A stretch of 7,468 nt of DNA from the IMG/VR virus record IMGVR_UViG_2541047500_000013; one strand, written 5' to 3'. Below are positions 3,599-4,333 of this stretch, piece after piece. The DNA comes from a virus (taxonomy: Duplodnaviria; Heunggongvirae; Uroviricota; Caudoviricetes). A program made the position numbers and the translations under genes. Within the stretch, counting starts at the first letter, position 1. Each line of letters starts with the position of its first letter. The notes beneath the pieces are model-generated. The model was not told where the DNA came from and ran no database searches. It saw nothing but the letters and a program-made list of their open reading frames with translations.

Positions 3599-4333
3599 AT
3601 GGAGACTGTTTTTGACGCACTGAAAGCGATGGGAAAAGCCACGTCGGTATAGCTGGCTGCGCGACTTGATATCAGTCGTGAAGAAGTACTGAACGAGCTG
3701 TGGGAACTGAAAAAGGCTGGCTTCGTTGATAAAAGCGTATACACCTGGCGTGTGGCTGATAACAACGTTCAGCAGGAACAGCCAGCGCCAGAAGAAACCA
3801 CCACGGCAACAGAAGCGAAAATCTCAGAGTGCGATTTAACCGCGACGATTGAACAACGCGGACCACAAACGGCGGATGAACTGGCTACGCTGTTCGGTAC
3901 AACATCCCGCAAAGTTGCTTCAACGCTGGCAATGGCAATCAGCAAAGGTCGTCTGATTCGCGTAAACCAGAACGGTAAAATTCGTTACTGCATACCAGGT
4001 GATAATTTACCAGCAGAGCCGAAAGTTGAATCGGTAGCGGAAACCGATGGTAAAGCCTTTCCTCAGCCAGCCGGTGTTGCGTTACCGGTACAGAAAGATG
4101 CAACACAGGAAGATATTAAAACAGAAACTGTGGCGGACATTGTGCAGTCGCTGCCATCGTTTACTGCAACGCGAGAAGATGATTTGATTTTGCCATCGCT
4201 GCATATGGCAAATCGCGAACTGCGTAGGGCGAAGAATCATGTCCAGAAGTGGGAGCGAGTCTGCGCCGCGCTGCGGGAGCTGAACAAGCACCGGGATATG
4301 GTTGCCGGGATTTGTCGGAAGTCCGGGCAATGA
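3599..4333 (+). pseudogene. Winged-helix (tandem wHTH, DUF1627-like) gene interrupted by an in-frame amber codon TAG at 3650..3652
   Basis: ATG 3599 with strong RBS GGGAGG (3588..3593). Reads [58 protein letters not shown]... in one continuous frame to TGA 4331..4333. The track only picks up GTG 3752, which has no RBS. The wHTH motif spans the stop. Confidence 0.7.

Follow-up and report, generated by a model that had tools for sequence, protein, structure and literature searches.

How a gene with a strong ribosome-binding site comes to be halted at its eighteenth codon, and whether any protein is still made from it, is the question raised by the ydaW locus of the window, the whole stretch of 7,468 nucleotides analysed here. 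The earlier note on this DNA, made from the letters alone, had offered two explanations, a recently inactivated prophage gene or a gene expressed by amber suppression or readthrough. We put a probability of about 0.9 on the window's ydaW being a lineage-specific nonsense pseudogene in the ompW prophage of Escherichia coli O157:H7, caused by a G-to-T change at position 3650.

The interrupted ydaW frame and its prophage

The interrupted frame comprises the following features:

3587..3592, + strand: Shine-Dalgarno sequence of ydaW, GGGAGG, read from the sequence six bases 5' of ATG 3599-3601
3599..3652, + strand: residual ORF of ATG, 16 further sense codons and a premature TAG; peptide METVFDALKAMGKATSV
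3650..3652, + strand: premature amber TAG, codon 18, produced by a G-to-T change at 3650 from an ancestral GAG (Glu)
3653..4333, + strand: remaining ydaW/DUF1627 frame 3' of the stop, annotated by PGAP as a 226-aa CDS from CTG 3653

At ATG 3599, the duplex between the Shine-Dalgarno (SD) sequence and the 3' end of 16S rRNA has a predicted energy of -10.3 kcal/mol, and the start of the residual ORF agrees with the family-wide N-terminus, METxxDxLKAMGKA. Translation of 3599-4336 gives a single internal stop, the TAG at 3650-3652, and the frame ends with TGA at 4331-4333. The 17 codons 5' and 226 codons 3' of the TAG reproduce the 244-aa orthologue of E. coli O55:H7 strain RM12579, codon 18 excepted. 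Because the flanking codons are identical to this intact orthologue, the frame across the TAG is not due to chance. With codon 18 filled in, the conceptual protein matches Pfam PF07789 (DUF1627) over residues 84-236 at 308.8 bits, against a cut-off of 28.1 bits. The ribosome-binding site, start codon, frame and amber codon had all been placed correctly to the base in the earlier note, and its view of the locus as one nonsense-interrupted gene, not two, is borne out by the flanks that match the 244-aa orthologue and by the DUF1627 score. A functional member of the DUF1627/YdaW family would have an uninterrupted frame; the window's copy has TAG at codon 18 and is a pseudogene member of the family.

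Many E. coli O157:H7 chromosomes match the 1.1 kb around ydaW at 100% identity. In O157:H7 strain TR01, the matching region lies within a lambdoid prophage adjoining ompW, in which int, xis, an exonuclease gene, dicB, a cI-like repressor gene, cro, a ydaT-like gene, a DnaT-like O gene and P are followed by the DUF1627 gene, a small ORF, a fimbrial pseudogene, paa, hokD and the late genes. The window represents the early-right operon of the prophage that O157:H7 carries at ompW (Sakai Sp9 / EDL933 CP-933O, island OI-57). We take yciD to be the old name of ompW. Sakai Sp9 is located at yciD (PMC8190617), and in EDL933, OI-57, with adfO/paa and ckf/hok, lies in prophage CP-933O at ompW (PMC9144400). 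In Sp9, the loader is a lambda-type P, the repressor lacks a peptidase domain and defects have been recorded (PMC2669165). We also considered Sp10 as the identity of the prophage and rejected it: its site is ydaO and its loader is of the DnaC type, as against yciD and a lambda P-type loader in Sp9.

The position of the gene is shared across the family. In every record for which annotation was fetched, the DUF1627 gene comes directly after the replication genes (O/P or O/DnaC-like). This synteny after O/P or DnaC-type genes recurs in six other phages, and placement in the early-right operon directly 3' of the replication genes was found in the window and at eight other loci. In Rac-type and Stx phages, lygF (Ren-like) comes next after ydaW.

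Several further differences were seen elsewhere in the window. At 2066-2067, O157:H7 has GG and O55:H7 and O145:H28 have TT (CAGGGGGGCGTATG versus CAGGGGTTCGTATG); the change lies within the 3' end of the ydaT-like ORF, 4-5 bases 5' of ATG 2071 of the DnaT-like O gene, and could, judging from its position, alter that gene's ribosome-binding site. The TR01 copy of the ydaT-like gene (TR01 locus 2150-2700, window 1548-2099) carries a 1-base deletion frameshift at a position matching window 1634, and in the window the gene is intact and encodes 183 aa; different lesions are therefore accumulating among O157:H7 strains in this operon. Towards the 3' end of the window, a hok/sok-type type I toxin-antitoxin locus is marked by an Rfam sok match (6140-6289, 103.9 bits) and a Hok/HokD (ckf) ORF at 6230-6442 (peptide MKQQKAMLIALIVICLIVIVTALVTRKDLCEVRIRTGQTEVAVFTAYEPEE). 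Within 6536-7468, identity to TR01, O55:H7 and O145:H28 falls beyond about 6589 from >99.8% to 85-88.5%, and the window's strain therefore has a different (mosaic) module downstream of hok/sok.

Family and predicted architecture of YdaW

The small YdaW family counts 176 representatives at 50% identity. A tblastn search located the gene in 24 phage records, where it is named YdaW or DUF1627, and phrog_630 matches the conceptual protein over residues 1-242, essentially its full length (E=2.5e-121). Further Pfam matches were sub-threshold: HTH_20, TrmB and Crp-type domains at residues 4-46 and a FeoC-like domain at residues 80-126. The N-terminal domain is the best conserved segment. The METxxDxLKAMGKA start, which is present in the conceptual translation, occurs in 113 of 120 close relatives and in most of 62 distant ones, and full-length relatives have it with few exceptions.

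An AlphaFold2 model built on 111 homologues predicts three ordered segments, encoded as follows:

3599..3757, + strand: winged-helix domain 1 (residues 1-53); block-mean pLDDT 89-95; sub-threshold HTH_20, TrmB and ArsR matches
3824..3994, + strand: winged-helix domain 2 (residues 76-132), where DUF1627 begins; pLDDT ~90; weak FeoC and ArsR-like matches
4199..4327, + strand: long C-terminal helix (residues 201-243), from the AlphaFold2 secondary structure; conserved pattern

The model places a disordered linker between the two domains and a second disordered stretch at residues 136-196. In the C-terminal helix, the pattern LxxAxxxLxRxK...ERxCxALRxLN is invariant in the homologue alignment, and the helix is probably a dimerising coiled coil. 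Codon 18 falls in helix 2 of domain 1, so the stop does lie within the first winged-helix motif, as the earlier note had it. Foldseek searches of the PDB returned weak matches to generic tandem winged-helix folds and found no functional relative; a PDB sequence search with the family profile gave weak winged-helix matches alone, with E values of at least 0.05. The model supports the label 'tandem winged helix' for YdaW.

PADLOC and NCBIfam gave sub-threshold winged-helix matches (Csa3, CARF, ArsR, MntR) and found no membership of a defence system. In PHROG, winged-helix domain 2 weakly matches 'Ren-like exclusion protein' families (E ~0.004). The literature that we searched gave no function for YdaW beyond a retron-blocker screen and a listing among uncharacterised transcription factors, and described no nonsense allele of ydaW. 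In that screen, a ydaW fragment from the K-12 Rac prophage, when over-expressed, blocks the retron-Sen2 toxin RcaT (bioRxiv 10.1101/2020.06.22.160242). Intact YdaW is probably, on its predicted structure, a dimer that binds nucleic acid and serves the early-right (replication) operon as an accessory protein.

Origin, spread and possible decoding of the amber codon

Two closely related prophages carry the gene in intact form. The O145:H28 phage PPompW_EH2246 shows 12 differences from window positions 1-6536, among them a G for the window's T at 3650; codon 18 of its ydaW is GAG, and the CDS is intact over 244 aa. The ompW prophage of O55:H7 RM12579 differs at 8 positions over the same interval, again including 3650 (T/G), and its intact 244-aa CDS (WP_000450692.1) equals the window's conceptual protein at all 243 other residues. 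O55:H7 is the lineage from which O157:H7 descends. In the more distant phages Rac-SA53, vB_EcoS-673R7 and Rac 442/2, codon 18 is GAA. Glutamate occupies this position in all of the 117 closest homologues that cover it and in 48 of 59 distant full-length relatives, with Asp in 4/59 and Gln in 2/59; no aligned sequence has a stop there (0/117 close, 0/59 distant). Since O55:H7 and O145:H28 both have GAG, and Glu prevails across close and distant homologues, the sequence comparison identifies GAG (Glu) as the ancestral codon and a G-to-T transversion, GAG to TAG, as the event. The ancestral residue had been expected to be Gln (CAG); the homologue alignment gives GAG (Glu) instead.

The window's copy thus stands one base away, at codon 18, from an intact sister-lineage orthologue with the ancestral sense codon. 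Recent inactivation of a prophage gene, one of the two explanations offered at the outset, fits the intact allele kept in O55:H7 and O145:H28 prophages that are 99.8-99.9% identical. The frame 3' of the TAG is still open, which is uninformative in so young a lineage (8 differences in 6.5 kb). As a test of constraint, dN/dS or decay 3' of the stop was likewise rejected, with 8-12 substitutions between the compared prophages.

To follow the allele, we searched complete genomes for a 71-mer centred on the TAG. It occurs exactly in 293 of them, and every labelled carrier among the matches listed is O157:H7; the one-mismatch class contains O145:H28, O111 and others. The reciprocal 71-mer with GAG has exact matches that include O55:H7, O111 and unlabelled strains, and among the matches listed, all those labelled O157:H7 carry one mismatch. 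The public databases hold products of 226 aa (from CTG 3653), 193 aa (from GTG 3752) and the intact 244 aa, each on at least 999 contigs. These counts bear on the reading of the TAG as a sequencing or assembly error in this one record, to which we attach a negligible probability: the TAG 71-mer is identical in 293 independently assembled complete genomes and the truncated products are each found on at least 999 contigs, and the error is for that reason refuted. Clonal descent seems to have fixed the allele in O157:H7. By the G-to-T change at codon 18, the ompW prophage of O157:H7 can be told cleanly from those of O55:H7 and O145:H28.

The sole other case of a stop at codon 18 that we saw, apparently the same allele, is P0099, a 231-aa NCBI protein on a 3.9 kb contig with its annotated start directly after codon 18. 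Its 5' two-thirds are identical to the window's ydaW and its C-terminal third is Rac-type, so that by sequence it looks like a recombinant of ydaW paralogues from different prophages with the same TAG allele.

Could translation restart 3' of the stop? The mutation would then remodel ydaW without killing it, leaving a functional N-terminally truncated protein that begins at GTG 3752 (193 aa) or CTG 3653 (226 aa); the 193-aa form would consist of the linker, domain 2 and the C-terminal helix. The frame 3' of the stop is intact, Pfam DUF1627 as defined spans residues 84-236 alone, and public annotation (PGAP, UniProt) reports both truncated forms, neither as a pseudogene. The start signals speak against such a restart. 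The first canonical in-frame start after the TAG is GTG 3752, codon 52, which sits 100 nt downstream. Its anti-SD pairing is -1.5 kcal/mol and that of CTG 3653 is -3.0 kcal/mol, versus -10.3 kcal/mol at ATG 3599; the best later in-frame candidates, two CTG codons, reach -5.0 kcal/mol, and by these duplex energies no SD sequence was found before any later in-frame restart codon. CTG is, moreover, a very poor initiator in E. coli. A start at GTG 3752 would drop the whole of winged-helix domain 1, the most conserved domain, which full-length relatives retain (59/62 aligned), the exceptions being some fragmentary or rearranged sequences and ORFs that gene callers placed on the TAG allele. Homologues that naturally begin at or after 3752 with their own start signals, which the earlier note had named as evidence against its interpretation, were looked for in the family, and none starting near codon 52 was seen among the aligned relatives; the sole entry that does was created by a gene caller on the TAG allele itself. 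The PGAP 226-aa CDS (WP_077744273.1) starts at the CTG directly after the TAG (window 3653, TR01 locus 4254) and has no pseudogene flag; its start looks like a homology-driven extension of the ORF. On the sequence evidence, no credible alternative start appears to rescue a conserved product, and restart after the TAG is unlikely.

Decoding of the amber codon, by a suppressor tRNA or by natural UAG readthrough that supplies a small, tuned amount of full-length YdaW, would leave the gene functional without any restart, and this we regard as very improbable. UAG followed by C is considered to be among the weaker termination contexts in E. coli, and the window's TAG precedes a C; moreover, Gln, the residue inserted by supE or by near-cognate tRNA-Gln, is found at codon 18 in 2/59 distant relatives. 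The stop itself, however, shows no conservation: a sense codon takes its place in all relatives, even in the O55:H7 prophage with its 99.9% identity. Programmed readthrough, which would be expected to leave the stop conserved at the same position among homologues, is therefore without comparative support. No tRNA gene was found in the window, and the tRNAs in the prophage stretches read (O157:H7 TR01 and O145:H28) are Met(cat), Arg(tct) and Lys(ttt) only; neither the window nor these stretches yielded a suppressor tRNA. The exact supE (glnV CUA) allele is present in 155 of 5,426 genomes, and the 60 of these 155 covered by the listing are without exception laboratory strains derived from K-12, with genomes of 4.5-4.8 Mb. 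An element that might promote readthrough is not apparent either. An Rfam scan of the window returned sok (6140-6289) alone and nothing near the stop. Expression through an amber suppressor or readthrough, the second explanation in the earlier note, is thus unsupported by the unconserved stop and by the absence of a suppressor tRNA from the window and the prophage stretches read. Background UAG readthrough is probably a fraction of a percent to ~1%, and low-level readthrough or weak reinitiation may occur at the ydaW TAG; the sequence evidence holds no sign that readthrough is being used.

Selection might also have acted on the change, such that loss or down-tuning of YdaW was favoured in O157:H7 and is not neutral decay. 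If so, intact proteins of the YdaW type might act against a defence or toxin system of the host, the over-expressed K-12 fragment being a blocker of RcaT, or they might influence how the dozen or so resident lambdoid prophages interact, and the amber codon would remove this activity or leave a trace readthrough product. We consider this distinctly unlikely. An allele carried clonally, as this one is, needs no selection to be fixed by descent.

Probable gene decay, module junction and comparison with known systems

With ydaW read as a nonsense pseudogene, ribosomes starting at the strong ribosome-binding site and ATG 3599 would terminate after 17 residues, inside helix 2 of winged-helix domain 1. 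Full-length YdaW would not be made, and the 226 remaining codons would be an untranslated or barely translated relic; we infer that no useful protein comes from the window's ydaW. The G-to-T change arose on the O157:H7 branch after its split from O55:H7 and has been carried clonally since. Sakai Sp9 remains capable of excision, replication and packaging (PMC2669165), which suggests that this ydaW copy is dispensable for those steps or is complemented by paralogues in other prophages. Rather than a special signal for decoding, the nonsense allele is an ordinary case of prophage gene decay, in a pathogen that carries many prophages. The same prophage shows other decay too, in the fimbrial pseudogene downstream of ydaW and in the recorded defects of Sp9. 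Both WP_077744273.1, with its CTG start, and a 193-aa UniProt entry present the relic as a protein, and a pseudogene flag is due.

Immediately downstream, the ydaW frame runs into a junction between modules:

4306..4333, + strand: module junction, where Rac-type ydaW homology ends; final ~10 codons ompW-prophage-specific
4330..4494, + strand: 54-aa ORF (PGAP hypothetical WP_001505071.1), overlapping the ydaW stop (ATGA)

At 4307, sliding identity to Rac-type ydaW falls from above 0.8 to about 0.3, and the C-terminus of the ompW-prophage YdaW stands in place of the Rac-type DIVRQI.DSS.R.VSEK. By this comparison, the last ~10 ydaW codons and everything downstream belong to a different module. 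The ATG of the 54-aa ORF (4330-4332) overlaps the ydaW TGA (4331-4333), which bears out the ATGA junction described in the earlier note. The ORF shares 57% identity with the N-terminal half of phage D6 orf90 (105 aa; tblastn), whose start likewise overlaps the stop of the preceding gene (GTGA); phrog_30109 matches it at 41/61 profile positions, and it ends at a TAG just 5' of the fimbrial pseudogene. It is probably, on these alignments, a truncated D6 orf90-like remnant at the module junction. The concern that the amber codon would also affect expression of this ORF is moot, the product being a truncated remnant; translational coupling to ydaW has no evident consequence.

Between the ydaW module and paa/adfO comes the fimbrial-protein pseudogene itself (4499-5032), for which PGAP notes a frameshift and an internal stop; O55:H7 has it in the same state. 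A promoter and terminator scan of 3300-5300 gave counts no higher than shuffled sequence and is uninformative on whether paa has a promoter of its own.

Among known systems, the nearest to the window's ydaW are its orthologues in O55:H7 RM12579 (WP_000450692.1) and O145:H28 PPompW (for example, BCI50178.1), which share the prophage, integration site and gene order; protein identity extends over the 243 other residues and DNA identity over 6.5 kb reaches 99.8-99.9%, but the orthologues have GAG (Glu) at codon 18 where the window has TAG. The Rac ydaW and those of Rac-like phages (Rac-SA53, Rac 442/2 and vB_EcoS-673R7) belong to the same family at 64-89% identity and have the position directly after the replication genes, the N-terminus and E18 in common with the window. 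The Rac-type gene ends in DIVRQI.DSS.R.VSEK and is followed by lygF, whereas in the window the D6 orf90-like remnant, the fimbrial pseudogene, paa/adfO and hok/sok follow. EcoCyc and published work describe the K-12 Rac ydaW as a decayed fragment too; it was presumably inactivated by truncation, and the window's copy by a point nonsense mutation.

ScpB, ESCRT-II subunits and the SelB C-terminal domains have two consecutive winged-helix domains, as is predicted for YdaW (Foldseek E 8e-5 to 6e-3). Their identity to YdaW is 12-18%, with TM-scores of ~0.2 and an rmsd above 10 Å over both domains, and they lack the YdaW linker and C-terminal helix. The likeness is one of fold only, from which a functional inference is unjustified.

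The lambda amber mutants Sam7, Pam80 and similar alleles resemble the window's ydaW in having an early UAG in a lambdoid phage gene. Those alleles were selected in the laboratory and are grown in supE/supF hosts; unlike them, the window's TAG allele, for which we found no suppressor in the sequences searched, belongs to a pathogen lineage in the wild and to a prophage that is resident there and partly defective.
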